Below are positions 7,745 to 56,173 of a DNA stretch of 64,000 nucleotides, one piece after another. The DNA lies in IMG/VR virus record IMGVR_UViG_3300042553_000685; one strand, given 5' to 3'. Position 1 is the stretch's first letter. Each line of letters begins with the position of its first letter. This DNA is from a virus. The notes under the pieces were generated by a model, which was not told the origin of the DNA, did not search any database, and saw only the letters and a list, made by a program, of their open reading frames with translations. The translations under genes were made by a program, and so were the position numbers.

Positions 7745-8183
7745 CAGACCGTGGTACTACGTTATATATAAGGGCCCCGATTCTTATATAGGTGTGACTG
7801 ATTATCTCGCGGCCGTGGCGCATGATAGGCAGTCTAGTCTAAGTTTTATGACACAGCAGAGTAGATTACTCAATTACCTGAAGAAGGGGCGCGCAGATTA
7901 TAAAACTAGTATCCGCGTAGCCCGCGCCATTAGGCCCGCCAGTGTAATAGGTTATGGTAACTATCTAGTAAGACAGAAGGGACACCTATCAGTTATTGAG
8001 CGGTGTGATGTTAGTACTCCTCATAGTCATAAGCATTTGAAATCCGCGCGGGCCGAGTTGATTATCTATCTCGAATGCGAGATGGACCGATGGAGTAAAA
8101 CAATTAGGACTATACGGAGATTAGATGCAGATAACGTTCAACGGCCCCTATCAGATGCTGCTGGGTCCGGCAGGGAGTGGTAA
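7728..8183 (+). CDS. Hypothetical protein (151 aa)
   Basis: ORF overlaps both neighbours. The N-terminal YYVIYKGPDSYIGVT is only weakly GIY-YIG-like and the spacing is atypical. Confidence 0.45.
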   Translation: MSILDDRPWYYVIYKGPDSYIGVTDYLAAVAHDRQSSLSFMTQQSRLLNYLKKGRADYKTSIRVARAIRPASVIGYGNYLVRQKGHLSVIERCDVSTPHSHKHLKSARAELIIYLECEMDRWSKTIRTIRRLDADNVQRPLSDAAGSGREW

Positions 8184-9303
8184 AACAACATACATACAGA
8201 GTTTGAGTAAGGCCCTCATCACTAGTAGTACTGGCGTGAGCGCTATTAATGCAGGCGGTACTACTATTCACGCGGCCCTCCAGTTCTTTGATACTACTAG
8301 TCTATTACGCTCCGCTTCCAGTGGAGCGCTGGCCACTAAGCTACGGGCTATATCTAATCTATTTGATACTCTAGTCATAGATGAGATCAGTATGTTACAT
8401 GGCCCGCAACTAACTATTATCCATCACGTAATGGAAAAGAGTAACATAAATATGAATCTCCTACTCGTGGGGGACTTCTGTCAATTACCACTAGTACCAG
8501 ATAAAAAGGTCACTAGCACGCCAGTCTATCAAACAGACTGCCTGCAGAGCTTCGATATACAGTACTTACGAGAGGTCAGGCGTCAGAGTGACCCCGGCTT
8601 CATACAGGCGCTGACTAGCGTAAGAGAAGGGCGGCCTCACGAAGCAGTAGATTGGTTCATAGATAATGTAGAGTTTGTCAATCAGATCGATGATAACTAC
8701 GCGGGCACTACTATCCTGACTACTAATGATAGTGTAGATAGATATAACGCCGTGCACCTAGCACAACTAGAAGGGCCTAGTCGCCTCTACACTAAGAACT
8801 ACGTTATACCGAAGGGGGGGAGGGCCGCTCCTGAGTGGAGCCAAATACCCGAATCAGTAGAGCTGAGGAAGGGCGCGCGCGTCATTCTACTTCGTAACAG
8901 ACTACCTGCGTATGCTAATGGCGATATCGCTATAGTCAAGGAGCTCATGACTAATACTATACTGGTGACAGTAGAACGTACCGGTCAGGAGACTATCATT
9001 GAATACGTGACACGAGATAATAAAGAGCTCGGCACTAACAAGCTATTGGGTCGCTGCCACTACTTACCCGTTAGACTGGGCTATGCCCTCACTGTTCATC
9101 GTAGTCAGGGGCTCACGCTTAATAACGTACAGGCTCGTCTCAGTAATTTACGTTGGCTCAGCGGGGGCCTCTATACTATTCTTAGTCGTGTACGTCATTA
9201 TAGCGGCCTCCGCCTGATAGGTACACGATCCGCCTTCTGTGATAGTTGCTATATAGAGCCTTCTATCCTTAAATTCTATAATCAGTTAGGTACTAAATCA
9301 TAA
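8125..9303 (+). CDS. SF1 helicase (Pif1 / RecD / Dda-like)
   Basis: Walker A GPAGSGKTT, Walker B VIDEISM, LLLVGDFCQLP, and TVHRSQGLT. Confidence 0.85.
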   Translation: MQITFNGPYQMLLGPAGSGKTTYIQSLSKALITSSTGVSAINAGGTTIHAALQFFDTTSLLRSASSGALATKLRAISNLFDTLVIDEISMLHGPQLTIIHHVMEKSNINMNLLLVGDFCQLPLVPDKKVTSTPVYQTDCLQSFDIQYLREVRRQSDPGFIQALTSVREGRPHEAVDWFIDNVEFVNQIDDNYAGTTILTTNDSVDRYNAVHLAQLEGPSRLYTKNYVIPKGGRAAPEWSQIPESVELRKGARVILLRNRLPAYANGDIAIVKELMTNTILVTVERTGQETIIEYVTRDNKELGTNKLLGRCHYLPVRLGYALTVHRSQGLTLNNVQARLSNLRWLSGGLYTILSRVRHYSGLRLIGTRSAFCDSCYIEPSILKFYNQLGTKS

Positions 9304-9584
9304 TGTTCGATTTACTTAGATACTTGCGGGGGCGTATATCTGACTTCCGCGAACCATATCAATCTCGTACGGCCCTTGGCGACGAGATCTTCTGCTGGTT
9401 TTACGGCACTCGCCGTCTCGCGTGTGTTAGATGGATTAAGGGTGGTTATTGTATTATTCCTAACTACCGCCCTAATCTATTGAGCTTCTTATCTACATTC
9501 AAGTCTGCTCAACAATACAATGACGAGGAGGCACCTGATGCCGTATACCAGGCTTATAGAAACCTATTTGATAACAATGGGTGA
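9303..9584 (+). CDS. Hypothetical protein (93 aa)
   Basis: ATG overlaps the helicase stop (TAATG). A terminator follows. Confidence 0.5.
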   Translation: MFDLLRYLRGRISDFREPYQSRTALGDEIFCWFYGTRRLACVRWIKGGYCIIPNYRPNLLSFLSTFKSAQQYNDEEAPDAVYQAYRNLFDNNG

Positions 9585-9621
9585 ACTACTGTGAGGTAGA
9601 ATCTTTCATCAATTATTAGTG

Positions 9622-9655
9622 GCCCCCCTACACTTTGGCAGGGGGGCTAGTTTTC
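9622..9655 (+). terminator. Rho-independent terminator
   Basis: 8-bp stem GCCCCCCT (9622-9629) / AGGGGGGC (9640-9647), followed by TAGTTTT. It marks the end of the backbone block and the start of the AT-rich island. Confidence 0.65.
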
Positions 9656-9712
9656 GGTACTTGTTAGATATACTTTGGTTATTCGCTATTATTAGTTTAA
9701 GGAAAAAATAAA

Positions 9713-10039
9713 ATGCACCAAAATATAAGCACCGATGAAGCAATCAAGCTACTCAAAGAAGATGATAATGCTGATTGGTCATGGTCGGGCGCTGAGGCTT
9801 TAGTTGAGTATCTAGAAGATTTAGAGGATAGCCTTGGTGAATCTATCGCGTTTGATAGAGTCGCTATCCGGTGCGAGTATTCAGAATACTCTAGCGCTCT
9901 AGAAACGGCCGAACATTACGGCTTTATACCAGAAGATGATGAGGATGAGGATGATGTAGAGTCATCTGCTATTACTTATCTAGAAGACAGAACAACAGTA
10001 ATTAAATTTGATGGGGGCGTTATTATTCAACAATTTTAA
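9713..10039 (+). CDS. Highly acidic small protein (108 aa)
   Basis: By my count about 30 Asp/Glu against 6 Lys/Arg, including EDDEDEDDVE. An AAGGA lies upstream of the ATG. This is the first gene of the AT-rich island. Confidence 0.6.
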   Translation: MHQNISTDEAIKLLKEDDNADWSWSGAEALVEYLEDLEDSLGESIAFDRVAIRCEYSEYSSALETAEHYGFIPEDDEDEDDVESSAITYLEDRTTVIKFDGGVIIQQF

Positions 10040-10085
10040 TTAATTAGTTAGACATAAAGTATCTTAACGAGTATTCTTGTTAGTC

Positions 10086-10150
10086 TATTCTTATTGATGA
10101 TAAGAATAATTAGTTATACTGTTATTTCAGTTGTCCTGAAATAACAGTAT
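10086..10150 (+). other. Two adjacent perfect hairpins (9 bp and 15 bp)
   Basis: TATTCTTAT (10086-10094) pairs with ATAAGAATA (10100-10108). ATACTGTTATTTCAG (10116-10130) pairs with CTGAAATAACAGTAT (10136-10150). No T-tract follows. Confidence 0.5.
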
Positions 10151-10187
10151 GTGGTACAACATATTGTCATCTATACGGAGGGTATAA

Positions 10188-10604
10188 ATGCTTACTGAAT
10201 TTTTGCATGATTGGGTCAAGTCTGAGCCTCACATTTGTGGGTATGGGTTGGGTACTTTTCGGAATACCTTTTTTATCGAACTATCTTGGGGTGATTGGAT
10301 TTCTATCTCTACCTCTGGTCCTGATCCCTTTTTGTTAGATCGGGGGTCGCTTGCTAAGTTGATCTATTTTTTCCAAATGCGTCTAGATAGCTTTGGTTAT
10401 GGTTGGGTTATTCAACGATTACCTAATAGTTATACTGTGACAGTTAGTGTGAATTCTGATCCTTACGAGACTTCACGTTGTTTTGTCTCTCGGCAAGAGT
10501 CTCTCATTGAAGCTTTGCTAGAGGTGTATTTAAAGGTGGTTGCTTATAAGAAAAAGTCGTTTTTACGTCCAGTAAAAAAGAAGGCATTTGATGAAAGAGA
10601 TTAA
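10188..10604 (+). CDS. Hypothetical protein (138 aa) leading the small-ORF array
   Basis: ORF ends ...FDERD-TAA inside the first array start box (ttt GAT GAA AGA GAT TAA read as ATG AAA GAG ATT AAT). This is the same junction architecture as the array units. Confidence 0.55.
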   Translation: MLTEFLHDWVKSEPHICGYGLGTFRNTFFIELSWGDWISISTSGPDPFLLDRGSLAKLIYFFQMRLDSFGYGWVIQRLPNSYTVTVSVNSDPYETSRCFVSRQESLIEALLEVYLKVVAYKKKSFLRPVKKKAFDERD

Positions 10605-10832
10605 TACAAATTATTGGGCGCCCCATAATCATGAATGGGCACCGTATCATGATTATGGGCTGCGCCTATACCTATTACTAACCTACCAATTTTAGCAAAC
10701 GGTGATAGTTTATACTATAGCTTCTACGTTTATAATGCTGGGGGGCCCGCTAAGTTTTATTATAAACTGGCAGGAAATGTATATAAGATTCTAGATGAGG
10801 ACGGTTATTTCGATGAAGATTATCAATTGTAA
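10591..10832 (+). pseudogene. Array unit 1, frameshifted
   Basis: MKEINTNYWAPHNHEWAPYHDYG is in one frame. (W)AAPIPITNLPILANGDSLYYSFYVYNAGGPAKFYYKLAGNVYKILDEDGYFDEDYQL is in the next frame. The break is at the G-run 10657-10659, where one extra G would restore the frame. Confidence 0.5.
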
Positions 10833-11025
10833 CGGTTGGGCTCCTCGTAATACTAGATGGGCTCCATATTGGGGTGAACTTGTACCTATTACTGATCCTC
10901 TGATAACAAGTGGTTATAGTTTATACTATAAGTTTCATACTTATAATAATGAAGGGCTTGCTTGGTTTTATCGTAAACTATCGCCAGATGAGAATGATTA
11001 TCTCTATGAAGAATGGTTGGCTTAG
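10795..11025 (+). CDS. Array unit small protein
   Basis: MK-box start at 10813. Blocks are INCNGWAPRN, VPITDPL, SLYYKF, LAWFYRKL. Confidence 0.45.
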   Translation: MRTVISMKIINCNGWAPRNTRWAPYWGELVPITDPLITSGYSLYYKFHTYNNEGLAWFYRKLSPDENDYLYEEWLA

Positions 11026-11221
11026 TAGTAATTGGGGTCCACATATGTCTATATCTGGATCTATTACTGACCCGGCGATTCTAGCAAACGGCGATAATTT
11101 ATATTATACATGGTTCTATGAAAGTATAATTGGGGCCTATACTCTTGAATTAGACAAGTTATATTTTTCTATCGACTTGTTTTATTATAACCTGCGTTTT
11201 TATCAGCGCTCTTTAACATAG
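10910..11221 (+). CDS. Array unit small protein (long subtype)
   Basis: The unit proper starts at 10988/11006 (MRMIISMKNGW). Blocks are ITDPAILANGDNLYYTWFY and YTLELDKLYFSIDLFYY. Confidence 0.4.
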   Translation: MVIVYTISFILIIMKGLLGFIVNYRQMRMIISMKNGWLSSNWGPHMSISGSITDPAILANGDNLYYTWFYESIIGAYTLELDKLYFSIDLFYYNLRFYQRSLT

Positions 11222-11242
11222 ACTGGTATATTGATATTTTAG

Positions 11243-11467
11243 GTGAGGATGATTATTTCGATGAAAACAATTGATTTATGCTGGGCTCTGTATGATGAAT
11301 GGGGTATACCTGTACTTATCACTGCTCCGCCAGTAGTAAATATCAATAATTTATATTATAGCTTCTATCCTTATAATTCTAGAGAACTTGCTATATTTTA
11401 CTATAGTCTGTCGTGGGGTAGTATTTTTTTTCTAGATGAGGATGATTATTTCAATGAAGATGATTAA
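11243..11467 (+). CDS. Array unit small protein (subtype A)
   Basis: MK start at 11261. Blocks are LITAPPVVNINNLYYSFY, LAIFYY, and tail LDEDDYFNEDD. Confidence 0.45.
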   Translation: MRMIISMKTIDLCWALYDEWGIPVLITAPPVVNINNLYYSFYPYNSRELAIFYYSLSWGSIFFLDEDDYFNEDD

Positions 11468-11648
11468 TTGTAGCAATTGGGCCCCACGTAATCCGTTGAA
11501 TATACCTATACCTATTACTGACCCGCCTGTTGACCTACAGGGATTATTAGGTAAATTGTATTTTGCTTATAGCCCTGGGAGACTCGCCTGGTTTTATTAT
11601 AGGCTGGGAGAATTTGTGATATTTTATTATATATGGCTTTTTGAATAG
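11436..11648 (+). CDS. Array unit small protein (subtype B)
   Basis: MK start at 11454. Blocks are INCSNWAPRN, IPIPITDPPVDLQG, RLAWFYYRLGEFVI. Confidence 0.45.
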   Translation: MRMIISMKMINCSNWAPRNPLNIPIPITDPPVDLQGLLGKLYFAYSPGRLAWFYYRLGEFVIFYYIWLFE

Positions 11649-11663
11649 GGGGCAATTACTTCA

Positions 11664-11822
11664 ATGAGAGCGATTAGATGTAACAGGCTTAATTACTTTT
11701 TTTATTTTGTTGAGGGTCTCGATACCTATACTCCTGAATTAAGGTTTTATGCTGTCGACCGATTTTACTATAGACTGTGTATACACATGGCAGATAAGTA
11801 TATATGGGGCCTATACCCTTGA
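11664..11822 (+). CDS. Array unit small protein (subtype C, 52 aa)
   Basis: Below the ORF-track cutoff. Translation is MRAIRCNRLNYFFYFVEGLDTYTPELRFYAVDRFYYRL... Confidence 0.3.
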   Translation: MRAIRCNRLNYFFYFVEGLDTYTPELRFYAVDRFYYRLCIHMADKYIWGLYP

Positions 11823-11931
11823 ATTACACAAGTTATATGTCTCTATCAACTTCTTTTATTTCAAGGCGTTTTACTACAGACAGGATATTGATATTTTAGT
11901 TGAGGATAACTATCTCTATGAAAACAATTAA
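11749..11931 (+). CDS. Partial array unit ORF
   Basis: Contains YTLELHKLYVSINFFYF and ends in the junction box (EDNYLYENN-stop). It lacks the MK-box N-terminus and may be a remnant. Confidence 0.3.
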   Translation: MLSTDFTIDCVYTWQISIYGAYTLELHKLYVSINFFYFKAFYYRQDIDILVEDNYLYENN

Positions 11932-12127
11932 TCCAAATTGCTGGGCCCCGTATGAGTGTGAATGGATTGCACCTATACCTATCACTGCTCCGCCAGTAGC
12001 AAATATCAATAATTTATACCATAGTTTCTATATTTATAATTCTACAGGACTTGCTATATTTTACTATAGACTGTCGGGGATAGTATTATATAATCTATAT
12101 GAGGATGATTATTTCTTCAATGAATAA
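11900..12127 (+). CDS. Array unit small protein (subtype A)
   Basis: MK start at 11918. Blocks are INPNCWAP, IPITAPPVANINNLYHSFY, LAIFYYRL. Confidence 0.45.
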   Translation: MRITISMKTINPNCWAPYECEWIAPIPITAPPVANINNLYHSFYIYNSTGLAIFYYRLSGIVLYNLYEDDYFFNE

Positions 12128-12359
12128 GATTAATTCTAACAATTGGGCCCCACGTAATCAGTCGAGTATACCTATACCTATTACTGACCCGCCTGTTGGC
12201 CTACAGGGATTATGCTTTTTTGCTTATAATCCTGAGAGACTCGTCTGGTTTTATTATAGACTAGGAAGTATGTTATATAACATTCTAGATAAGGACAGTT
12301 ATTTCAGTGTGCTATACAACATTCTATATGAGGACAATTATTTCGATGAAGAAGATTAA
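12099..12359 (+). CDS. Array unit small protein (subtype B)
   Basis: MNKIN start at 12120. Blocks are NNWAPRN, IPIPITDPPVGLQG, RLVWFYYRL, and tail YEDNYFDEED. Confidence 0.45.
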   Translation: MRMIISSMNKINSNNWAPRNQSSIPIPITDPPVGLQGLCFFAYNPERLVWFYYRLGSMLYNILDKDSYFSVLYNILYEDNYFDEED

Positions 12360-12558
12360 TTCTGATAATTGGGCTCCTCGTAATAAAAGAGCCCCGCATG
12401 CGTGGACTTCATACATACCTATCACTAATCCGCTTCTAGCGAGCGTTGATAACTTATACTATAGCTTTTATGATGTGGTGCTGTTTTATTATATACTGGA
12501 AAGAGTAGCATCATATAACATTTTGGATGAGGACAATTACTTCTATGAAGATGATTAA
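12307..12558 (+). CDS. Array unit small protein
   Basis: MKKIN start at 12346. Blocks are SDNWAPRNK, YIPITNPL, NLYYSFY, LDEDNYFYEDD. It is the first member of a duplicated two-unit block. Confidence 0.45.
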   Translation: MCYTTFYMRTIISMKKINSDNWAPRNKRAPHAWTSYIPITNPLLASVDNLYYSFYDVVLFYYILERVASYNILDEDNYFYEDD

Positions 12559-12739
12559 TTGTAATGGTTGGGCTCCTTGTAATAAGTTGTGGGGAGCCGC
12601 ACCTATACCTATTACTAACCCATTGATAGCAAACCATAATAGTTTATACGATAACTTTTATGTCAGAGGAGTCGCTTGGGTTTACTACAACCTATCTGAG
12701 CCTACTATAACCTACCATTATTTCTATGAAGAAGATTAA
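12527..12739 (+). CDS. Array unit small protein
   Basis: MK start at 12545. Blocks are INCNGWAPCNK, APIPITNPLIANHNSLY, VAWVYYNL. Confidence 0.45.
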   Translation: MRTITSMKMINCNGWAPCNKLWGAAPIPITNPLIANHNSLYDNFYVRGVAWVYYNLSEPTITYHYFYEED

Positions 12740-12938
12740 TTCTGATAATTGGGCTCCTTTTAATAAAAGAGCCCCGTATGAGTGGGCTCCATACATACCT
12801 ATCACTAATCCGCCTCTAGTGCGCGTTGATAATTTATACTATAGCTTTTATGATGTGGTGCTGTTTTATTATATACTGGAAAGAGTAGCATCATATAACA
12901 TTCTAGATGAGGACAATTACTTCTATGAAGATGATTAA
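12726..12938 (+). CDS. Array unit small protein
   Basis: Near-identical paralog of 12346-12558 (MKKINSDNWAPFNK...LDEDNYFYEDD). Confidence 0.45.
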   Translation: MKKINSDNWAPFNKRAPYEWAPYIPITNPPLVRVDNLYYSFYDVVLFYYILERVASYNILDEDNYFYEDD

Positions 12939-13131
12939 TTGTAATGGTTGTTTTCTTCGTAATAAGCTGGTTCCATATGAGTGGGGCGCCGCACCTATAC
13001 CTATTACTAACCCATTGATAGCAAACCATAATAGTTTATACGATAACTTTTATGTCAGAGGAGTCGCTTGGGTTTACTACAACCTATCTGAGCCTACTAT
13101 AACCTATCATTATTTCTATGAAGAAGATTAA
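12907..13131 (+). CDS. Array unit small protein
   Basis: MK start at 12925. Near-identical paralog of 12545-12739 except at the N-terminus (NGCFLRNKLVPYEWG). Confidence 0.45.
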   Translation: MRTITSMKMINCNGCFLRNKLVPYEWGAAPIPITNPLIANHNSLYDNFYVRGVAWVYYNLSEPTITYHYFYEED

Positions 13132-13309
13132 TTGTAACGATTGGGCTCCTCGTAATAAGCCGGTTCCGTATGAAGAGGCCGCACCCATACCTATTACTAA
13201 CCCGTTGATAGTAAACCATAATTATTTATACTATAACTTTCACACTTATAGTGCCGGAGGAGTCGCTTGCGTTTACCGTAATATAACCTATCATTATTTC
13301 TATGAATAA
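13118..13309 (+). CDS. Array unit small protein
   Basis: MKKINCNDWAPRNK, APIPITNPLIVNHNYLYYNF. The stop lies inside the next start box (ATGAATAA). Confidence 0.45.
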   Translation: MKKINCNDWAPRNKPVPYEEAAPIPITNPLIVNHNYLYYNFHTYSAGGVACVYRNITYHYFYE

Positions 13310-13529
13310 GATTAATTGTATTGGTTGGGCTCCGCGTAATATTAAATGGGCTCAGTCTGGATGGGGGGCATATGTACCTACTGCTGTCCCTCCAATAGCA
13401 GATAATAAGTTATTCTATAACTTCTATTTTTATCATGATGGAGGGCCAGCCAGGTTTTACAATAGACTAGTAGGAGTAGTGTTGTATAGCTTTCTGGATG
13501 AGGACAATTACTTTAATAAAGATGATTAA
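13302..13529 (+). CDS. Array unit small protein
   Basis: MNKINCIGWAPRN, YVPTAVPPIADNKLFYNFY, ARFYNRL, LDEDNYFNKDD. Confidence 0.45.
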   Translation: MNKINCIGWAPRNIKWAQSGWGAYVPTAVPPIADNKLFYNFYFYHDGGPARFYNRLVGVVLYSFLDEDNYFNKDD

Positions 13530-13806
13530 TTGTAACAATTGGGCGCCTCATAGTAATAACGATTGTTGGACTGCACGTAATAAGTTGAGTATACCGATAC
13601 CTATTACTGACCCACCGATTTTACCAAATGGTGATAATCTATACTATCTATGGTTCTATCGTTACTACCATGAAAGCATGGGTCTCGGGGCCTATATCCC
13701 TGAATTGAACAAGTTACATGTTCCTATCAACGTGTTTTATCATAGATTAGGAAATGTGTTATATAACATTCTAAATGAGGACGGTTATTTCGATGAAGAT
13801 GATTAA
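13498..13806 (+). CDS. Array unit small protein (long subtype)
   Basis: MK start at 13522. Blocks are IPIPITDPPILPNGDNLYYLWFY, YIPELNKLHVPINVFYHRL, and tail NEDGYFDEDD. Confidence 0.45.
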   Translation: MRTITLIKMINCNNWAPHSNNDCWTARNKLSIPIPITDPPILPNGDNLYYLWFYRYYHESMGLGAYIPELNKLHVPINVFYHRLGNVLYNILNEDGYFDEDD

Positions 13807-13984
13807 TTGTAATGGTCGGGCTCTGAACAATAAGCTTAAGATCTCTATGCTTATTGAGCCTTCTGTTGGTGACCTACAGGTGTATTTTGCTTGTAGTCCT
13901 GGGAGACTCAGACTCACCTGGTTTTATTATAGACTGGGAGAATTTGTGATATATGGCCTTTATGGGGGGCGGTTACCTCAATGA
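13775..13984 (+). CDS. Array unit small protein (subtype B, diverged)
   Basis: MK start at 13793. Blocks are INCNGRALNNK, VGDLQ, RLTWFYYRLGEFVI. Confidence 0.4.
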   Translation: MRTVISMKMINCNGRALNNKLKISMLIEPSVGDLQVYFACSPGRLRLTWFYYRLGEFVIYGLYGGRLPQ

Positions 13985-14154
13985 GGGCGATTAGTTGTAA
14001 CAAGCTTAATTACTTGTTTTATTATTATGAGGATGTGGGCCTCGAGAGTCATATCCCTGAATTAAGCAGGTGCTCTATCAACCGGTTTTATTATAGGCTG
14101 ATAGCTGTAATACACAACATACTATATAGGTATACATTCTATGAAGATGATTGA
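13981..14154 (+). CDS. Array unit small protein (subtype C, 57 aa)
   Basis: Below the ORF-track cutoff. Translation is MRAISCNKLNYLFYYYEDVGLESHIPELSRCSINRFYYRL...YEDD. It has an ATGA overlap with the upstream stop. Confidence 0.35.
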   Translation: MRAISCNKLNYLFYYYEDVGLESHIPELSRCSINRFYYRLIAVIHNILYRYTFYEDD

Positions 14155-14329
14155 TAACGCTCCCGACCTTGCTTTGTTTTACAACTTGATTCTATACAGT
14201 TGGAATGTGTATAATAAGCACAAGGCCTCTATACCTATTAACACTGTCAACCTGTTTTACTATAGACTAGTGGCTTTTATATATAACGCTCTAGATGAGA
14301 GTGATTACTTTAATGAAGAATATTTCTAA
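14141..14329 (+). CDS. Array unit small protein (diverged)
   Basis: MKMIDN..., IPINTVNLFYYRL, LDESDYFNEEYF. Confidence 0.35.
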   Translation: MKMIDNAPDLALFYNLILYSWNVYNKHKASIPINTVNLFYYRLVAFIYNALDESDYFNEEYF

Positions 14330-14468
14330 CGATTTGTATGACATTACCTTATCTTACTACTGGAATGTGTGTGATAAGCTGAAGGGCCATACACATATTA
14401 ACCCTACCGGCGAGTTTTTATACCTGTTTTACTATAGACTGATAAGTGTATTGTCTGACACATTCTAG
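14313..14468 (+). CDS. Array unit small ORF (51 aa, diverged)
   Basis: MKNISNDLYDITLSYYWNVCDKLKGHTHINPTGEFLYLFYYRL... Below the ORF-track cutoff. Confidence 0.3.
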   Translation: MKNISNDLYDITLSYYWNVCDKLKGHTHINPTGEFLYLFYYRLISVLSDTF

Positions 14469-14514
14469 ATGAGAATGAATAAGGATGATATTATATATAA
14501 GGACGGTTATTCTG

Positions 14515-14661
14515 GTGAAGACTATTATATGTGACGAGTGGACTCTACACAATAAGCTTAGAGCCTCTATGCTTATTAAGCCTTTTGTTAGGGCAGCCTA
14601 CTTAGTGTTTAATAAGCAGGTTTACTCTAGATTATATATAGCGGGACGATTATTTCTATGA
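14515..14661 (+). CDS. Array unit small ORF (48 aa, GTG start, diverged WTLHNK subtype)
   Basis: VKTIICDEWTLHNKLRASMLIKPFVRAAYLV...SRL. Its stop overlaps the next ATG (ATGA at 14658). Confidence 0.25.
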   Translation: MKTIICDEWTLHNKLRASMLIKPFVRAAYLVFNKQVYSRLYIAGRLFL

Positions 14662-14861
14662 AGATAATTGATTGTAATGGCTGGACTTCGCGTAATATCT
14701 TTAATATGCCTATACCTATTACTGACCCGCCTGTTGACCTACAGGGATTGTTAGTTGCTTATAGTCCTGGGGGACTTGCTTGGTTTTATTATAGATTACT
14801 AGAACTTGTAATATATAGTTTTCTTAATAGAGAGGACGATTATTTCAATGAAGATGATTAA
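14658..14861 (+). CDS. Array unit small protein (subtype B)
   Basis: MKIIDCNGWTSRN, MPIPITDPPVDLQG, LAWFYYRL, REDDYFNEDD. Confidence 0.45.
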   Translation: MKIIDCNGWTSRNIFNMPIPITDPPVDLQGLLVAYSPGGLAWFYYRLLELVIYSFLNREDDYFNEDD

Positions 14862-15039
14862 CTGTGACACGCACATTCAGATAAGTACTGACAAGCTAAA
14901 ATTAGCAAATGGTGATAATTTATACTATAGTTTCATTTTTACTATATTTGGAGGGCCCGCCAGGTTTTACTATAGACTGGTAGCTGTGATATACGACATT
15001 CTATATGAGGATGATTATTTCAATGAAGAATATTTCTAA
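14848..15039 (+). CDS. Array unit small protein
   Basis: MKMINCD..., LANGDNLYYSF, ARFYYRL, YEDDYFNEEYF. Confidence 0.4.
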   Translation: MKMINCDTHIQISTDKLKLANGDNLYYSFIFTIFGGPARFYYRLVAVIYDILYEDDYFNEEYF

Positions 15040-15301
15040 CGATTGTCTGTTACCTTGGATTTTGAATAATGATTATCTCAATGCCTTGCGCTTGTTTCAT
15101 TATTATGAAGAAATGGGTTTCGAGATTTATACTCCTAAGCTAAGCAAGTGTTGCGGCTCTATATTCCGGTTTTACTGTAGATTGGTAAATATGTTAGAAA
15201 ACATCCTGGATAAGGATGATATTCTAGATGAGGGCGATTATTATCTTGAGGATGGCCAATTCGATGAATATGAGGACGGTTATTTCGATGAAGATGATTA
15301 A
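15005..15301 (+). CDS. Array unit small protein (subtype C, extended acidic tail)
   Basis: MK start at 15023. Blocks are LRLFHYYEEMGFEIYTPKLSKC, FRFYCRL, and the long tail DKDDILDEGDYYLEDGQFDEYEDGYFDEDD. Confidence 0.4.
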   Translation: MRMIISMKNISNDCLLPWILNNDYLNALRLFHYYEEMGFEIYTPKLSKCCGSIFRFYCRLVNMLENILDKDDILDEGDYYLEDGQFDEYEDGYFDEDD

Positions 15302-15440
15302 TGATTGGTCTCTGCACAATAAGCTTATTAAGGCCCCTATGCTTGAGTTTTCCGTTGGGGCAAATTACTTAGTAACCCGGTTTTATTGGTTTATTATTCT
15401 AAATGAGGACGGTTATTTCGATGAAGATGATTATGATTAA
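15228..15440 (+). CDS. Array unit small ORF (degenerate)
   Basis: MK start at 15288. Blocks are MKMINDWSLHNKL..., NEDGYFDEDDYD. Confidence 0.3.
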   Translation: MRAIIILRMANSMNMRTVISMKMINDWSLHNKLIKAPMLEFSVGANYLVTRFYWFIILNEDGYFDEDDYD

Positions 15441-15663
15441 TAATTGGACCTTTGAGGCCTTTATACGTATTGAGCCTTCCGTTAAGGCAAATTATAGTAT
15501 CCGGTCTTATTTAATGAGCAGGTACTATGTCGGTTTGTTTTACTCTAGATTGGGTCATAAGAGTTTGTGTGATTGGACTCTACACAATAAATTTAAAGCT
15601 TCTATACTTATTACTGAATCTTCCACTGAGACAGATAACCTAAAAAGCCTATATACTTACTGA
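15403..15663 (+). CDS. Array unit ORF (two fused degenerate units)
   Basis: MK start at 15421. It contains FYSRL followed by a second DWTLHNKFKASILI block with no intervening junction box. Confidence 0.3.
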   Translation: MRTVISMKMIMINNWTFEAFIRIEPSVKANYSIRSYLMSRYYVGLFYSRLGHKSLCDWTLHNKFKASILITESSTETDNLKSLYTY

Positions 15664-15752
15664 GCCTTTCGTTGGGGCAAATTACTTAGTAACCCGGTCT
15701 TATTTAATAAGGTCGGTTCGTTTTACTCTAGATTGAATTATAAGGGTTTGTT

Positions 15753-15938
15753 TTGATGAAGAGAATTTCTACTTATTGGATTTTATATAATAATTGGGTT
15801 CTGTGTAATAATGATTATTTCAAATTGGGTGAGCTTTACGACTGGACTCTCAACAATAAGCTCAAGGCCTCTATACTTATTACTTTTATAAATCAATTTT
15901 ACTATAGACTGCTATACAATTATTTCGATGAAGACTAA
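15753..15938 (+). CDS. Array unit small ORF (degenerate)
   Basis: ATG at 15756. Blocks are DWTLNNKLKASILI, QFYYRL, YFDED. Confidence 0.3.
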   Translation: MMKRISTYWILYNNWVLCNNDYFKLGELYDWTLNNKLKASILITFINQFYYRLLYNYFDED

Positions 15939-16061
15939 ATTGTAATATTTGGATTCTACACAATAAGCTGAAGGCCTCTATATTTATTACCTCTGTCGAC
16001 CAGTTTTACTATAGACTGGTAAGTAAATTGTCTAACACATTTTAGATGAGAATGAGTAAGG

Positions 16062-16277
16062 ATGACATTATACATAAGGACAGTTATTTCAATGAAGATG
16101 ATTTCAATGAAGATGATTATGATTAATAATTGGTCTCTACACAATAAGCTTAAGGCCTCTATGCTTATTGAGCCTTTCGTTGGGGCAAATTACTTAGTAA
16201 CCCGGTCTTATTTAATGAGCAGGAATCATGTTGGTTCGTTTTACTCTAGATTGAATCATAAGGGTTTGTTTGAATGA
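16062..16277 (+). CDS. Array unit small ORF (degenerate)
   Basis: Duplicated MKMI box. Blocks are NNWSLHNKLKASMLIEPFVGANYLV, SFYSRL. Confidence 0.3.
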   Translation: MTLYIRTVISMKMISMKMIMINNWSLHNKLKASMLIEPFVGANYLVTRSYLMSRNHVGSFYSRLNHKGLFE

Positions 16278-16405
16278 AGGCTATTTCTAACTATTGGATT
16301 TTCGACTGGACTCTCAACAATAAGGTCAAGGCCTTTATACTTATTACTCTTATAGATCAATTTTACTATAGAATGCTATACAATTATTTCGATGAAGACT
16401 ATTAA
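16274..16405 (+). CDS. Array unit small ORF (43 aa)
   Basis: MKAISNYWIFDWTLNNKVKAFILITLIDQFYYRMLYNYFDEDY. Below the ORF-track cutoff. Confidence 0.25.
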   Translation: MKAISNYWIFDWTLNNKVKAFILITLIDQFYYRMLYNYFDEDY

Positions 16406-16562
16406 TCATAACGATTGGACTCTGCACAATAAGCTGAAGGCCTCTATGTTTATGCCTGAACCACCCATTGAGACATATCACTTAATGCGTAAGTTTTATG
16501 ATTGTAATTCTTTCGAACTTGCCTTGTTTTATTACAGACTGGAAGTATGCAATTTATGCTAG
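16392..16562 (+). CDS. Last array unit small ORF (56 aa)
   Basis: MKTINHNDWTLHNKLKASMFMPEPPIETYH...LALFYYRLEVCNLC. The array and the AT-rich composition both end here. Confidence 0.3.
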   Translation: MKTINHNDWTLHNKLKASMFMPEPPIETYHLMRKFYDCNSFELALFYYRLEVCNLC

Positions 16563-16848
16563 AGGGCGATATGTGGTGCGATAGACGAGATATAAATATA
16601 TGGCCTGAACCATGTTAAAGATATCCCTTGAGAACGGTAGTATGGATGACCTGGGGTGGGCCTAGACGCCGGCGGTAATAGTATATTGAGGTACCTATTG
16701 AAAAAACTATCCGAGATATTCTTATGGTACGGGCCACGGGTAAGTGACATCACTTATCTCGAGCATCTTGCCATTAACAGGCAATATGTATTAATGTTTA
16801 AGTTCAAGCTTAGTTATTATAGAGCATTCATACAATATACGGAGAGCG

Positions 16849-18042
16849 GTGACGAGAGAGAATGAACAACTGATAATGGAGCGGTTAACTATACCAGAAC
16901 TATTAAATCTGCGGCATGGTACTAATGATTGTCCTGCTTGTGGGGGGCGCGGTAAGCTAAGTGTATATCCGCACTATATGAAGTGCTGGAGAACTAGTTG
17001 TGAGTTGAATGCAGGTATGGGTCTGGTTAATGCCTGGCGTTGGCATACTAAGCTTGATTATGCTGGGGCTATGCAACAGTTAGAGGCCCGCGCTGGTATA
17101 CGTCAGGCCCGCGAGGTTATGGATGCTCGCAGTATAGTACTAGAGAGCGCACTAGAGGCCTATCATTATTATCTTGATACTACGCCTGCTGCTCAGGATT
17201 ATATACTACGGCGGGGCTGGTCTCTCGATCTAGCTCGTAGTATTGGTATAGGGTATGCTCCTCCTGGTGGTCTACGTCAATTCAATATAGATCATGAGGC
17301 ATTAGCTCGCGAGGGTCTGATTAAGGAGGACGGCGAGGATTACTATAGGGAACGCATTATATTCCCTATACGAGATACACGAGGCCATCTAGTCCATATG
17401 GTTGGTCGCTATATAGGTAGTAGTGAGAGGGCCCCCCGTTATAAGGATACGCGGGCCGCTATTAATAGTAAGCGCTATCTCTATCTAGAACATTGTCTTA
17501 AGGAGTATAGTAAGCACCCAGCTCGCGAGCTATATATAGTTGAGGGCCCACCCGATGCCACATCACTAATAGGTCGTGGTTTACCTGTAGTGGGATTATT
17601 GGGTCTGGAGTATCTATTATGTCACACCAGTAAATTCAAGCCCTTCCGTCGTATCACATTTATATTCGACTCAGATAAGTATAGCGATGATCATCCTACT
17701 CATGCCGGTGTATATAAGAGTTGGGTGCGTATCATACCTCAACTAGTTCAACTGCAGGTTAACTTACCATTAGCTGAGCTTATGACGTATATGGTTGCTG
17801 ATTATAAGGATATTAATGAGTGGTTGGTAGCAGAGCCTCGCGTTAATGCTGCTGATACTATCAATGCTAACCGCATACTATTCGTAGATGATTTACTAGC
17901 TCAATGGGGGCCCGATATTAGTCATCACGTAGATATATTACGGGTATTGACTGCTACTCATTCCCCCTTAGGGCTACTGGCCCCTTATGTAGATAATCAA
18001 TTAGGGCCCCTTGAATATGCCTCTCTACTATTCGGATCCTGA
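16849..18042 (+). CDS. DnaG-type DNA primase (zinc finger + TOPRIM)
   Basis: CPACGGRGK...CWRTSC zinc ribbon, with TOPRIM signatures YIVEGPPDATSL and FIFDSDK. The probable start is ATG 16862 or 16877. Confidence 0.8.
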   Translation: MTRENEQLIMERLTIPELLNLRHGTNDCPACGGRGKLSVYPHYMKCWRTSCELNAGMGLVNAWRWHTKLDYAGAMQQLEARAGIRQAREVMDARSIVLESALEAYHYYLDTTPAAQDYILRRGWSLDLARSIGIGYAPPGGLRQFNIDHEALAREGLIKEDGEDYYRERIIFPIRDTRGHLVHMVGRYIGSSERAPRYKDTRAAINSKRYLYLEHCLKEYSKHPARELYIVEGPPDATSLIGRGLPVVGLLGLEYLLCHTSKFKPFRRITFIFDSDKYSDDHPTHAGVYKSWVRIIPQLVQLQVNLPLAELMTYMVADYKDINEWLVAEPRVNAADTINANRILFVDDLLAQWGPDISHHVDILRVLTATHSPLGLLAPYVDNQLGPLEYASLLFGS

Positions 18043-18874: not shown

Positions 18875-19675
18875 ATGTTTACTATTAATTACCGCTATCT
18901 AACGGAGGCGCAGGAATATTATAAACAGAAGGGCTATAGAGTAGTCGACCTAAAATGGGTCGTGCCCCGCCATATTGGCTCTGTAACATCACCAGAGCCT
19001 AATAGTCAGGCTTCTTATAATTGTTCCGACACTCTTGTACTGGTAGGTAGCGCAGAACAGACCTTCATCCATAATGCGATAAATGGACATTATCAGGCAG
19101 GTGACGCACTGCAAGCTATTACGCCGTGTTTTCGTCCACTGGATAATGATGATTATAGCTATCCTTACTTCATGAAGCTGGAGTTATTTGTGTACAAGGG
19201 TATGCCTGGTATGACTGAAGATACTATCTGTACTGATGCATACCAGTGGATGCTACATTATATTAATCCACATAATCTCAAGTTCGTGCATTGTGCCGAT
19301 GAGACAGATATAGTCTATACCCCATTGAATCTAGAGCTGGGTTCTTATGGTAAGCGCTCCTATGAGGACCACTGGTGGTATTATGGCACTGGTATAGCTG
19401 AGCCCCGCTTCAGTGTAGCAGTTAATGACTCCTTCCGGCCCGGCTATCACTCTAGTCCTATCCCTAAATATTTTCCTAATACGCTGGATAAGATATACGA
19501 GGAGCTGCTCGAGTGTCGCGACGTCACTAATTCATTATTGAGGCAGTGCGAGTTAGCTGATATACTACTCGCTGTTGAGCAATATGCTGTATCTCAATAC
19601 GGTGAGGCAGGATGGGATGCTATTAGGGATATGGCTAAGTTAACACAACGCGCCTTCGCCGCAGATAAACGATAG
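18875..19675 (+). CDS. Class II aminoacyl-tRNA-synthetase-like catalytic core with a helical C-terminal extension
   Basis: LVGSAEQTF (the L..S.E element), a motif-2-like ITPCFRPLD...YFMKLELF, and a motif-3-like YYGTGIAEPRF. No anticodon-binding domain is evident. Read by eye only. Confidence 0.45.
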   Translation: MFTINYRYLTEAQEYYKQKGYRVVDLKWVVPRHIGSVTSPEPNSQASYNCSDTLVLVGSAEQTFIHNAINGHYQAGDALQAITPCFRPLDNDDYSYPYFMKLELFVYKGMPGMTEDTICTDAYQWMLHYINPHNLKFVHCADETDIVYTPLNLELGSYGKRSYEDHWWYYGTGIAEPRFSVAVNDSFRPGYHSSPIPKYFPNTLDKIYEELLECRDVTNSLLRQCELADILLAVEQYAVSQYGEAGWDAIRDMAKLTQRAFAADKR

Positions 19676-19894: not shown

Positions 19895-20389
19895 ATGCTT
19901 AACATTCAAGTCCGTCAGGGTGTATTTGAAACTAATAGTTCGAGCACCCATAGTATATCTATTCCCTGTCAGACTAGCCTTACTATCCCTGAATTAATAC
20001 ATTTCGAGATTGGCGATTTCGGTTCTGATACTAGTATCCTGAGTTCTATAGCAGCCAAGGCCAGTTATTTATACACAGGCTTCGCTGCTAACGATAGAAT
20101 GAAAGACGCCTATGACATAATACTCTACCTGCTATCAGAGGGTATTGCTGTAACTGCCGAGGATGTAGTATATGACGAATACGAAAGTCTTAATGGCGGC
20201 TATATGGACCACGCCAACGAGTTGAATGGATTCCTCGATGCTATTGTAGCTAATAAGGATATGATGATGCGTTATCTATTCTCGCCCTATAGCTTTATCC
20301 TAACCGGTAGTGATAATGACTACAGTTATGTAATTGATAATAAGGAAGTGATGGAGTATGCTAGCGACTTCTTTTACAAGGGCAATTAG
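19895..20389 (+). CDS. Hypothetical protein (164 aa) with N-terminal FETNSSSTHS motif
   Basis: ORF lies directly upstream of the radical SAM gene. The N-terminus MLNIQVRQGVFETNSSSTHSISI looks like a conserved signature that I cannot place. Confidence 0.55.
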   Translation: MLNIQVRQGVFETNSSSTHSISIPCQTSLTIPELIHFEIGDFGSDTSILSSIAAKASYLYTGFAANDRMKDAYDIILYLLSEGIAVTAEDVVYDEYESLNGGYMDHANELNGFLDAIVANKDMMMRYLFSPYSFILTGSDNDYSYVIDNKEVMEYASDFFYKGN

Positions 20390-21326
20390 ATATCACTACC
20401 CCCGCCTTATGAATAAGTTTAATGAATTAACAACCTTAGCGCATTATATTAATGGTGACTATGAGTGTACCCTATATGCTGATGGTACCCTGGTTCGTAC
20501 TACAAGTGTGGTCGGGGCCCGCCCTGCCTATCCCTGCTCTATAGATATTAAGATCACTGACTACTGTGATATGGGATGTAGGTATTGTCATGAGAGTTCT
20601 ACTCGTAATGGTAAACACGCTGACCTAACACGGTTACTCGATGTCCTTAGTGATATACCTGCTGGGGTCGAATTAGCAAACGGAGGGGGTAACCCACTAT
20701 CTCATCCTGATATAGTGGATTACCTAGTAGAACTTAAGGCCCGCGGGCTTATAGCTAACATTACTGTTAACCAGGGTCATCTACATCGCTACGCTACTCT
20801 AATAGAGGATATCGTAAGCCAGGAGTTAGTGCGGGGCCTCGGTATCTCAATCACTAGTAGTAACTATAGCAGTCTGATACCAGTACTGAGTCTCTCAGAT
20901 AACATCGTGTATCACATCATCGCTGGTATCCATCCCGTTAGTATAATCGATGAGTTGGTTAGTCTTAGCGCTGCAACCAGTAAGGTACTCGTACTAGGCT
21001 ATAAGAACTTCGGCTTCGGTATAGATTATCATAGCCCTGAGGTAGTTGCAGGCATAGCGCAGTGGCGGCGTCTCCTACCCTCTCTTATAGGTAAGTGTAA
21101 TCTCTCCTTTGATAACCTGGCTATCGAACAGTTAGAGCTCAGACGTTTATTCACTGATGAAGGGTGGACCCGCTTCTATATGGGCGATGACTTCCAGTTT
21201 ACTATGTATATTGATGCGGTTAAGCAGCAGTATGCTCCTACTAGTCGTAGTTATAACCGTACGTCATTTGACTCTACTTCACTAATCGATTACTTCCAGG
21301 CAGGCTTCTCATGCACATCAAGCTAG
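20358..21326 (+). CDS. Radical SAM enzyme
   Basis: CxxxCxxC cluster motif ITDYCDMGCRYCHES and a GGE-like ANGGGNPLSHPD. There is no Cys-rich SPASM-type C-terminus. The likely start is ATG 20409 (MNKFNELT). Confidence 0.8.
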   Translation: MLATSFTRAIRYHYPRLMNKFNELTTLAHYINGDYECTLYADGTLVRTTSVVGARPAYPCSIDIKITDYCDMGCRYCHESSTRNGKHADLTRLLDVLSDIPAGVELANGGGNPLSHPDIVDYLVELKARGLIANITVNQGHLHRYATLIEDIVSQELVRGLGISITSSNYSSLIPVLSLSDNIVYHIIAGIHPVSIIDELVSLSAATSKVLVLGYKNFGFGIDYHSPEVVAGIAQWRRLLPSLIGKCNLSFDNLAIEQLELRRLFTDEGWTRFYMGDDFQFTMYIDAVKQQYAPTSRSYNRTSFDSTSLIDYFQAGFSCTSS

Positions 21327-53374: not shown

Positions 53375-53521
53375 ATAATTTGCGTTGTAGTGTGATGGTT
53401 AAATGTTGAGAGTCATATTAGATGCCTCTGGACTCTAACTTGTGGGATGACTTTCTTCTCCTACACTATATATTATAATATTAGGGTAGTCCATATTTAA
53501 CCATAACCCTGGGAGCATAGA

Positions 53522-54337
53522 ATGACAACGATGCTTAGAAGAGTACAACGACTTTTAGACTCTGGCGATAGTGATAACGCTAGAGAAGAAATTGATAGAG
53601 CTTTCGGCAATCTGAGAAGGGTGGATAGTCATGTTAGAGAGTTTTCAGATCTGTTGGCACTGGGATCGATCAAAGCTTCAGAAATCGGCTTAGGGGTATT
53701 GGGACGTAAGCTTCTACAGAATGACAGCGAGATTAACAATGAGGTTGTTTGGTTATTTATTGCGTCAATTTTATCTCGCAATAGTATTCCCCCTGATAGT
53801 CCATCTAGAATCAGCCTACTTGTTCTTACCGCTTCTGTCAATAGTTGGGAATTACCAATTTTTGCGCTTCTTGCCCCTGCCCTCGACGCTTTTTTTAAAG
53901 TTAGTCTTGCGGACGGAACCCCTTTAATTGCCGAACAAACTTTTGATTTTTTGGCCACTTGGGGAAGAATTTATGCGAAAGCACCTCATGTCAAAACGCA
54001 GCTTCAAGAACTTCAATCTCTTAGTAATAATCTATTAGAGCAAGTAGATGACTCAGAGTTAAAAGCTGAATGGTCAGAGGGAATTAATATATTTTTTGAA
54101 GAAGCCAGTACAACCAAATATTCAGATAGTAATGTTTTTTCTGCTGGTGAAGAATTAATTAAAAAAATTTATAATACTCAAAGTTTACAGCGCAATACAG
54201 AAGATAAGAATTTGGCAGAGACAAAAGACAAGTTACTCCGATTAGTCACTTCGTCTCTTGCTACTATTGGAACAGTTCTTGGTAGTGATGGAGTCATACT
54301 AAATACGGTTCTTGATAATTCTAGTAAAATAATGTAA
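53522..54337 (+). CDS. Hypothetical protein (271 aa), moron island
   Basis: AT-rich + strand ORF inside the - strand tail block, with a helical-looking sequence. Confidence 0.6.
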   Translation: MTTMLRRVQRLLDSGDSDNAREEIDRAFGNLRRVDSHVREFSDLLALGSIKASEIGLGVLGRKLLQNDSEINNEVVWLFIASILSRNSIPPDSPSRISLLVLTASVNSWELPIFALLAPALDAFFKVSLADGTPLIAEQTFDFLATWGRIYAKAPHVKTQLQELQSLSNNLLEQVDDSELKAEWSEGINIFFEEASTTKYSDSNVFSAGEELIKKIYNTQSLQRNTEDKNLAETKDKLLRLVTSSLATIGTVLGSDGVILNTVLDNSSKIM

Positions 54338-54366
54338 GATTTAAGTAATGAATCAAGGAGGAAATC

Positions 54367-54621: not shown

Positions 54622-54672
54622 ATTTAGTTATCAGTTATCAGTTAAAAACAACAATAAATCAAGGAGAAAATT

Positions 54673-55356: not shown

Positions 55357-55381
55357 TAATTTCACCCAACAGGAGTAACAA

Positions 55382-55744: not shown

Positions 55745-55757
55745 ATAGTAGCAACAG

Positions 55758-56168: not shown

Positions 56169-56173
56169 CGCTA

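Follow-up and report, generated by a model that had tools for sequence, protein, structure and literature searches.

In the viral record IMGVR_UViG_3300042553_000685, a 64,000-nucleotide stretch of DNA that is referred to here in its full length as the window, positions 10591-16562 of the + strand carry a lineage-specific tandem multigene family, phrog_4393, made up of about 30 genes for proteins of 45-100 amino acids (aa). It is highly probable that this is a real, expressed family of protein-coding genes that evolves by birth and death. We give a probability of about 0.5 to the favoured explanation as a whole; that part of it in which the family supplies the phage with diversified binders or inhibitors of host proteins is held to be less likely than not.

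The array is a one-stranded series of overlapping units

When the open reading frame (ORF) listing was combined with a tiling of the region, 30 consecutive head-to-tail units of 34-102 aa each were found to tile 10591-16562 on the + strand, as the original prediction had proposed. The units are about 120-350 bp long with a start-to-start spacing of 85-354 bp (mostly 170-230 bp), and 22 of the 29 junctions overlap by 4-20 nt. At 13 junctions the overlap is exactly 14 nt, because the stop codon of one unit falls within the ATGAAGATGATTAA of the next, and the frame step is usually +1. Matches to a hidden Markov model (HMM) of the family were confined, in the entire 64 kb, to the + strand of 10591-16553. 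The start motif that had been noted as common to the units, ATGAAGATGATTAAT, occurred 33 times in the window with up to three mismatches allowed, compared to 2.64 ± 1.65 times in shuffled sequences, and 27 of the 33 occurrences were on the + strand within the array. When only stretches of 50 or more codons without a stop are counted, they make up 93.5% of the + strand of the array and 32% of its - strand, and in dinucleotide shuffles 26 ± 7% with a maximum of 45%; on these figures the ORFs of the - strand are regarded as by-products. Third codon positions are T-rich in the array, and likewise in the flanking genes.

The family is catalogued but uncharacterised and belongs to one phage lineage

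Matches to phrog_4393, which is annotated as unknown function, were obtained for 25 of the 30 units at an expectation (E) value of <= 0.01 and for 20 units at E <= 1e-5, the best being 5.2e-26. The array had first been described as an unrecognised family. To judge from these matches, it is instead the counterpart of gp137-gp157 of Ma-LMM01 (YP_851151-YP_851171) and of ORF133-143 of MaMV-DC, all annotated as hypothetical proteins of unknown function, with equivalent ORFs in MaMV-DH01, CH01, CH02, DL01 and DL02; it is therefore a catalogued family, though an uncharacterised one. The accompanying claim that the units belong to no known domain family or RNA gene held in the other databases searched: scans of the units with Pfam, NCBIfam and PADLOC gave no meaningful match (one M11L at E 0.08, far below the cut-off), a PDB profile search gave nothing better than E 1.7, and an Rfam scan of 9500-17500 gave nothing at E <= 0.1.

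A BLAST search of positions 10000-17500 against 50,697 phage records returned nine Fukuivirus records only, including Ma-LMM01, MaMV-DC, MaMV-DH01 and MaMV-CH01/CH02/DL01/DL02, which are myophages of Microcystis in the genus Fukuivirus, and tblastn against all phage records likewise returned nine Fukuivirus records only. The gene order around the array agrees with that of the Fukuivirus phages, and on these comparisons the window is assigned to a Fukuivirus-like Microcystis myophage. A profile search of 1.84 billion representative proteins yielded 72 proteins, all of 42-97 aa except one 1452-aa repeat protein that was judged on inspection to be a chance match, and no domain fusions were seen among the 72. 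A search of 5.8 billion proteins yielded 183 small proteins on contigs of up to 160-190 kb, the few named ones being from Microcystis phages. Scans of 185,579 bacterial and archaeal species genomes (GTDB) found nothing, either by peptide patterns or by the junction DNA motif, which argues against a host copy or a prophage origin. As far as these searches reach, the family is an orphan of this phage lineage, with no fused domain that would hint at its function. The array is not described in the papers examined on Ma-LMM01, MaMV-DC, MaMV-DH01 and MaMV-CH01, a scope that does not include the original Ma-LMM01 genome paper, which may mention the paralogues.

Transcription of the units had been named as a check, and in the Ma-LMM01 RNA-seq data the homologues show middle-phase transcripts: Table S3 of that study lists gp137-gp157 in the middle expression class B5, with log2 fragments per kilobase per million (FPKM) of ~7.3-9.8 at 3 h and 6 h for those of the genes whose values were read, compared to ~10.9 for the primase gene and 0-5 for a silent cluster (PMC5780444).

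Selection acts on a few residues of the unit proteins

To describe codon usage, 201 distinct coding sequences (CDS) of the family from ten genomes were aligned. Conserved amino-acid columns use 2-4 synonymous codons, as at L51 (CTG 82, CTA 46, TTA 36, TTG 20), at Y48 (TAT 110, TAC 83), and at P11 and P24 (four codons each), which is direct evidence for selection at the amino-acid level. The pair of segments first cited for such selection, 11502-11528 and 13591-13617, does differ at three third-codon positions while both encode IPIPITDPP in frame. The inference drawn from that pair stands for a handful of positions, but the synonymous excess is not general: in 240 pairs of 70-98.5% nt identity, differences at the three codon positions numbered 2682/2308/2696, and the ratio of nonsynonymous to synonymous substitution rates (dN/dS) was 0.57. 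Reciprocal-best orthologues gave mean values of 0.44-0.63, compared to 0.64-0.91 in the two shifted frames, rather than the value near 1 that had been named as evidence against protein-level selection. The neighbouring genes gave 0.01-0.07 for the helicase and the primase, and 0.11-0.17 for gp131 and gp133. Within the unit, dN/dS was 0.20 in the acidic tail, 0.25 in the FYYRL block, 0.46 in the N-terminal block and the LYYxFY block, and 0.8-0.9 in the loops and the Pro-rich block, and no replacements between orthologues were found at W9, Y48, L51, Y65 and F66. Length variation in the alignment is clustered at three insertion hot spots. Average constraint is weak, and it is strong on a few scaffold residues.

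Paralogues are old and individually retained between phages

The helicase-primase position of the array is shared by Ma-LMM01, MaMV-DC, DH01, CH01, DL01 and a 192-kb metagenomic scaffold, that is, by every genome with flanks examined, and in nine IMG/VR loci the family HMM matches are one-stranded. The comparison of copy number among related phages that had been called for showed a wide range: from ~3.95 kb in MaMV-DC and 4.6 kb in Ma-LMM01 the array rises to 5.4 kb in DH01, CH01 and DL01; that of the window measures 5.96 kb, those of eight IMG/VR contigs with a substantial array 5.4-8.4 kb, and that of the 192-kb scaffold 11.8 kb with 61 HMM matches, the number of matches per array being 21-61 overall. 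Annotated gene numbers for the same locus are ~11 in MaMV-DC, 21 in Ma-LMM01, and from ~23 to ~30 in DH01 versus CH01 and DL01, even though DH01 and CH01/DL01 have identical family-HMM coordinates; because annotations of the same locus differ this widely, gene counts are not comparable between these phages.

At the nucleotide level the array matches the cultured relatives at 67-90% identity (94% in one 149-bp segment), compared to ~94-97.5% for the DNA just downstream. Of 200 units, 92% were closer to their best match in another genome (mean 86% aa identity) than to their best paralogue in the same genome (mean 56%), and the best partners of the window's units are spread over five metagenomic genomes. 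Since orthologues are closer than paralogues and the partners lie in five genomes, the paralogues appear to be old, individually retained and shuffled between phages. The mode of evolution indicated by this comparison is birth and death with recombination, and neither concerted evolution nor recent dosage amplification. CRISPR targeting was considered as a cause of the hypervariability and set aside, as the reported FACHB-524 spacer matches fall in other genes.

The unit proteins are aromatic-rich, mostly acidic and predicted to be partly disordered

The unit proteins have a median length of 67 aa, and the aromatic richness reported for them was borne out: Tyr, Phe and Trp together make up 19% of residues, compared to 8% in the window's other genes and to the 14% that base composition predicts. 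The residues that exceed this prediction are Tyr, Trp, Asn, Pro and Asp. Most units are acidic, with an isoelectric point (pI) of 4-5.5, and a distal sub-group (starting at 13793, 14515 and 16107) is basic (pI ~10) and lacks the acidic tail. No transmembrane-like segment was found in the unit proteins. AlphaFold2 was run twice on family alignments, one of 103 and one of 89 sequences, and the predicted local distance difference test (pLDDT) scores were 51 and 59.5. In both predictions the Pro-rich N-terminal half lacks structure, and a single helix spans the aromatic FYYRL region at about residues 37-57.

A panel of diversified binders is the favoured explanation

In the explanation that we favour, each unit is a compact cassette in which the tail of one protein overlaps the start signals of the next gene, and the Ma-LMM01 homologues are transcribed in the middle phase alongside the replication genes. 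Unequal crossing-over at the conserved junctions duplicates and deletes units, and co-circulating phages exchange them; constraint is strong on W9, Y48, L51, Y65, F66, the FYYRL block and the acidic tail and weak on the loops. The products would be partly disordered mini-proteins in which a Pro-rich N-terminal half is followed by an amphipathic aromatic helix and a tail of acidic and aromatic residues, and their most likely role would be to bind or inhibit host proteins, as a diversified panel, in host takeover or counter-defence. Such a role is suggested by a set of features that is usual for host-interaction genes: the location in an AT-rich accessory island, a divergence higher than anywhere else in the genome, many paralogues that are individually retained, partly disordered products that carry motifs, and expression with the replication genes. 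The restriction of the family to phages lends an anti-defence function indirect support. Microcystis is noted for a very large defence repertoire in the study that reports the Ma-LMM01 transcripts (PMC5780444), and in view of this repertoire the simplest conjecture is a panel of diversified inhibitors. A role in host interaction or counter-defence is nonetheless put forward tentatively, on the basis of the evolutionary pattern and this defence background, and the narrower version, a library of mini-proteins each neutralising a different Microcystis defence member (toxin-antitoxin, abortive-infection or restriction), is doubtful.

Several observations weigh against the favoured explanation. About a third of the units (about 10 of 30) are degenerate, frameshifted, truncated or fused, and mean dN/dS is ~0.55, a descriptive figure in that the pairs are non-independent and recombination is left out of the model; much of the array could thus be drifting. 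Part of the aromatic richness follows from the AT-rich composition. The searches returned no homologue, fold, domain fusion or known anti-defence signature linking the family to a host target, and the link to host defence is drawn solely from the evolutionary pattern and known Microcystis biology. Expression of the family is known at the transcript level only, and in the Ma-LMM01 values array transcripts are 2-8 fold under those of the flanking replication genes (PMC5780444).

Alternative explanations for the expansion and for the acidic tail

Several of the same observations would be expected if the expansion were largely non-adaptive, with ORF-bearing cassettes perpetuating themselves by slippage and recombination and most copies drifting without individual function. 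The weak mean constraint with near-equal differences by codon position, the degenerate third of the units, the lack of a detectable fold in the two AlphaFold2 runs and expression below that of the neighbours in the Ma-LMM01 data all fit such drift. On the other hand, chance comes nowhere near maintaining open frames to this extent, certain residues stay invariant while their synonymous codons turn over, and a 4-12 kb array persists in every genome examined even though phage genomes tend to be limited in size. That many copies drift neutrally is plausible, but such drift leaves unexplained why individual paralogues are retained as orthologues across phages, and as an account of the whole array we consider it improbable, if the strongest of the alternatives.

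The original prediction had also suggested a gene accordion, and the part of this that stood is that copy number differs, about threefold, between related phages. In its dosage form, as in poxvirus K3L or T4 tifA, one gene would have been amplified recently because more product was selected for. The conserved junctions would favour unequal crossing-over, and the window holds traces of such a mechanism: a moderately recent two-unit duplication of 380 bp at 91% identity, together with the 39-bp tail and 15-bp start-motif duplications. The copies are, however, neither recent nor near-identical. There are no runs of near-identical copies, the sub-families differ in charge and architecture, and the comparison of paralogue with orthologue sequences (~56% versus ~86% aa) largely refutes a dosage accordion, which we consider very unlikely. 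The small in-frame duplications within units, which repeat 39 bp with the tail motif YNILxxDxYF, 24 bp of an extended acidic tail and 15 bp with the start motif, appear to have been left by slippage or by unequal exchange at the junction.

The acidic tail of the array proteins (DEDDYFxEDD) may resemble the acidic tails of single-stranded DNA-binding protein (SSB), T7 gp2.5 and gp4, and the products could accordingly be replication accessories that mimic the SSB tail and titrate replication or repair partners of host or phage. The tail is the most constrained region of the unit, with Y65 and F66 invariant, and the array shares both location and expression with the replication module. Unlike in SSB tips, the aromatic residues do not lie at the C-terminus, several units have no tail, and titration would leave 30-60 diversified copies unexplained; this role also appears very unlikely.

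The junction encodes a protein tail and the start signals of the next gene

The most conserved DNA of the unit is the junction, TATAAC-ATTCTA-GATGAGGAY-RATTATTTC-N-ATGAAGATGATTAAT, a stretch of ~35-40 bp that recurs about every 200 bp. It codes for the tail of one protein (YNILDEDxYFxEDD-stop) and the first five codons of the next, and it also holds a -10-like TATAAY box and, 11 nt ahead of the following ATG, a Shine-Dalgarno-like GAGGA element. Where the last tail codons change synonymously, the changed bases are second positions in codons 1-5 of the next gene, which fits the variable residue 3 (M/K/T/I). The MK start is ATG in 97% of the 201 CDS; some units have an in-frame upstream ATG (MRxIIS...), which is absent where the preceding unit has an alternative tail. 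Since the conserved tail DNA corresponds to the TATAAY box, the GAGGA element and the next start, with the stop lying within ATGAAGATGATTAA, the array is probably transcribed as a polycistronic message with translational coupling and internal promoters. The idea that programmed frameshifts would join the units into a polyprotein was set aside, given the ATG of each unit's own, the upstream GAGGA and the absence of a known shift-site geometry.

The regularity of the junction also raises the question of whether the AT-rich direct repeats act as DNA, by serving as a replication origin, as an array of iterons or promoters or as a platform for protein binding, with the ORFs being secondary. The array does form an island with a GC content of 0.34-0.38 beside replication genes, as had been noted, compared to 0.43-0.53 across most of the window; Sigma-70-like sites number 57 compared to 33.4 ± 5.8 expected; and the TTC codon in the tail is kept despite the local preference for T at third positions. 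Many of the Sigma-70-like sites derive from Tyr/Asn codons, from which TATAAT-like boxes also arise, and the conservation of the junction is accounted for by dual coding together with the Shine-Dalgarno and start signals. The retention of ORFs is strand-specific, amino acids are conserved alongside synonymous codon turnover, and no Rfam match was found in the region scanned. The array could have a DNA-level function in addition to its coding role, but this would not account for the strand-specific ORFs and the amino-acid constraint, and as the main explanation a DNA-level element is rated slightly below the SSB-tail and dosage alternatives.

The individual units vary in completeness and charge

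All units lie on the + strand, and E values given here are for phrog_4393. Unit 1 (10591-10829) is frameshifted, with a 34-aa N-terminus at 10591-10695 and the rest in another frame at 10656-10829, the two parts matching HMM positions 1-17 and 16-69 (0.0088). It is followed by unit 2 (10813-11025, 70 aa, 8.2e-21), by the long-loop variant unit 3 (11006-11221, 71 aa, 3.3e-8), by unit 4 (11261-11467, 68 aa, 3e-16) and by unit 5, which lacks the acidic tail (11454-11648, 64 aa, 4.1e-23). The degenerate units 6 and 7 (11664-11822, 52 aa; 11749-11931, 60 aa) overlap by 74 nt and retain only the FYYR(L/Q) block and the tail, with weak family HMM matches and no PHROG match. Unit 8 (11918-12127, 69 aa, 1.3e-24) precedes unit 9 (12120-12359, 79 aa, 7e-22), within which Tandem Repeats Finder (TRF) located the 39-bp tail duplication at 12267-12344.

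The two-unit duplication occupies 12337-13158 (2.1 copies of 380 bp, 91% matches by TRF) in register with the unit junctions. Within it, unit 12 (12726-12938, 70 aa, 2.1e-16) is a copy of unit 10 (12346-12558, 70 aa, 1.2e-18) at 88.6% aa identity, and unit 13 (12925-13131, 68 aa, 6.8e-15) is a copy of unit 11 (12545-12739, 64 aa, 1.8e-17) at 88.2%. Units 14 (13118-13309, 63 aa, 2.8e-20) and 15 (13302-13529, 75 aa, 1.8e-23) are followed by unit 16 (13498-13806, 5.2e-26), a long-loop variant of 102 aa when read from an upstream ATG, its usual MK start being ATA at 13516.

The distal part is more heterogeneous. Unit 17 (13793-13984, 63 aa, 1.9e-9) is a basic variant (pI 9.6), unit 18 (13981-14154, 57 aa, 2.6e-6) lacks the WAPRN/IPITDPP half, and unit 19 (14141-14329, 62 aa, 2.7e-8) is followed by two units with no PHROG match: the degenerate unit 20, in which FYYRL is kept (14313-14468, 51 aa), and unit 21, a degenerate basic variant with a GTG start (14515-14661, 48 aa, 25 bits with the family HMM). 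Units 22 (14658-14861, 67 aa, 1.1e-24) and 23 (14848-15039, 63 aa, 4.8e-18) precede unit 24 (15023-15301, 92 aa, 3.8e-4), which has an extended acidic tail with a 24-bp repeat at 15247-15297 (TRF). Then come unit 25 (15288-15440, 50 aa, 0.0029), unit 26 (15421-15663, 80 aa, 0.0011), in which two partial units are fused and give two HMM matches, and unit 27 (15753-15938, 61 aa, 6.8e-4). Unit 28 (16107-16277, 56 aa, 2e-6) is a basic variant whose start motif is duplicated as a 15-bp repeat at 16086-16118 (TRF), unit 29 (16274-16405, 43 aa) is a short variant with 14 bits in the family HMM and no PHROG match, and unit 30 (16392-16562, 56 aa, 7.1e-12) is the last.

Neighbouring genes and other features of the window

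The gene order at the locus is SF1 helicase, two small ORFs, a 138-aa ORF, the array, a DnaG-type primase, a class-II aminoacyl-tRNA-synthetase-like gene, a radical-SAM gene and a PD-(D/E)XK nuclease, so that the array lies between replication genes as had been described. The SF1 (RecD/PIF1-like) helicase gene upstream (8125-9303, +) matches Pfam AAA_30 at 1.3e-15 as well as AAA_19 and PIF1, and is the homologue of Ma-LMM01 gp160. The 138-aa ORF of unknown function (10188-10604, +) lies immediately upstream of the array, its end overlapping the frameshifted unit 1; no Pfam, NCBIfam or PHROG match was found for it, and its dN/dS is 0.35-0.53. It is annotated in MaMV-DC and DH01, and the homologous Ma-LMM01 DNA (86% identical) has no annotated gene. 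Downstream, the DnaG-type primase gene (16849-18042, +; Pfam DNAG_N 1.2e-11), the homologue of Ma-LMM01 gp134, starts 286 nt after the end of the array, in agreement with the spacing of about 290 nt first given. The class-II aminoacyl-tRNA-synthetase-like gene (18875-19675, +) matches phrog_4806 with no Pfam match. The radical-SAM gene (20358-21326, +), 3.8 kb downstream of the array, has the generic Pfam core only; the best NCBIfam match of its protein is 26 bits against a cut-off of 380 bits, the protein is far below every curated cut-off, and no SPASM or RiPP recognition element (RRE) match was found in it. A multi-precursor locus for ribosomally synthesised and post-translationally modified peptides (RiPPs), which had also been offered as an explanation and in which the many small aromatic-rich ORFs with a conserved N-terminus would be precursors modified by a phage enzyme such as this uncharacterised radical-SAM protein, with the aminoacyl-tRNA-synthetase-like gene also nearby, is the least likely of all, given that the conserved blocks run from residue 1 to the C-terminal tail with no conserved-leader/hypervariable-core pattern, that the primase and other genes separate this generic enzyme from the array, leaving no adjacent maturase, and that no protease or exporter gene was seen among the neighbours examined.

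The boundary between array and primase (16563-16848 in the window) is an insertion hot spot when compared across relatives. It holds two transposase genes (gp135 and gp136) in Ma-LMM01, three extra ORFs in DH01, CH01 and DL01, and a UbiD-like fragment and other ORFs in the 192-kb metagenomic scaffold; in the window there is the 286-nt spacer only, with neither the insertion sequence nor the three-ORF insertion. A second AT-rich island at 53400-57000 (GC 0.32-0.36, low at 54-57 kb) lies between - strand genes and carries + strand ORFs at 55382-55744, 55758-56168 and 56174-56680 (120, 136 and 168 aa) with no PHROG match. The first of these has 91% DNA identity to an ORF between array and primase in MaMV-DH01, CH01 and DL01, and the three ORFs at that boundary in those phages are of near-equal sizes to the trio at 55382-56680; the group has the appearance of a cassette whose site differs from phage to phage. 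Elsewhere, a 2898-aa ORF (24819-33515, -) begins where gene orientation and GC skew switch, at ~24.8 kb.

Implications and comparison with known systems

Among the lytic phages that infect Microcystis aeruginosa, which forms toxic blooms, the Fukuiviruses (Ma-LMM01 and the MaMV phages) have been studied best. They devote 3-6% of their genome to this orphan family, and no other part of their genomes, otherwise ~95% identical, changes as fast. Should the units prove to be factors of host interaction or counter-defence, unit content could explain narrow and shifting host ranges, and the array would lend itself to studying, in a natural setting, how dozens of diversified small effectors are maintained by a phage. 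In the narrower version, with each unit neutralising a different defence member, the array would represent a new class of modular counter-defence locus in which unit content sets the host genotypes that a Fukuivirus can infect. Regardless of function, the array is a clear example of birth-and-death evolution and of the dual coding of a protein tail and the start signals of the next gene. It is also a trap for assembly and annotation, with published calls varying between 11 and ~30 genes. The locus has been public since Ma-LMM01 was sequenced; what is new here is the window's array as a new mosaic allele.

The closest known systems are the Ma-LMM01 and MaMV arrays themselves, which share with the window the family (E down to 5e-26), the strand, the helicase-primase locus and the overlapping head-to-tail layout, and differ in that the window carries a different mosaic of units at 67-90% nt identity. 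Among eukaryotic viruses, the MGF100/110/300/360/505 families of African swine fever virus and the host-range families of poxviruses are multigene families in variable genome regions. Like the array, they consist of tandem diverged paralogues that are gained and lost between strains and evolve faster than core genes, but their proteins are larger and bear no sequence relation to the units, and host-range and immune-evasion roles have been shown for them experimentally.

Cyanobacterial multi-precursor RiPP loci, such as those of the prochlorosins and cyanobactins, likewise contain many small ORFs of one family, whereas in the array a leader/core pattern is lacking, no maturase, protease or exporter gene was seen next to it among the neighbours examined, and its setting is a lytic phage's replication module. 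Iteron-type origins consist of short repeated initiator-binding sites in non-coding AT-rich DNA; they resemble the array in having AT-rich direct repeats beside replication genes, and differ from it in that the array's units are ~200 bp long, with ORFs maintained on one strand and constraint at the amino-acid level. As a looser parallel, segmental amplification of T4 tifA against toxIN (PMC9391042) and SegB-driven amplification of anti-defence loci (PMC13096335) have been shown experimentally in T4 and T6. These phage accordions and those of poxviruses share with the array a tandem copy-number change by recombination at one locus; in them, however, the copies are recent, near-identical and selected for dosage, whereas the copies in the array are old (~56% aa identity) and kept as orthologues.

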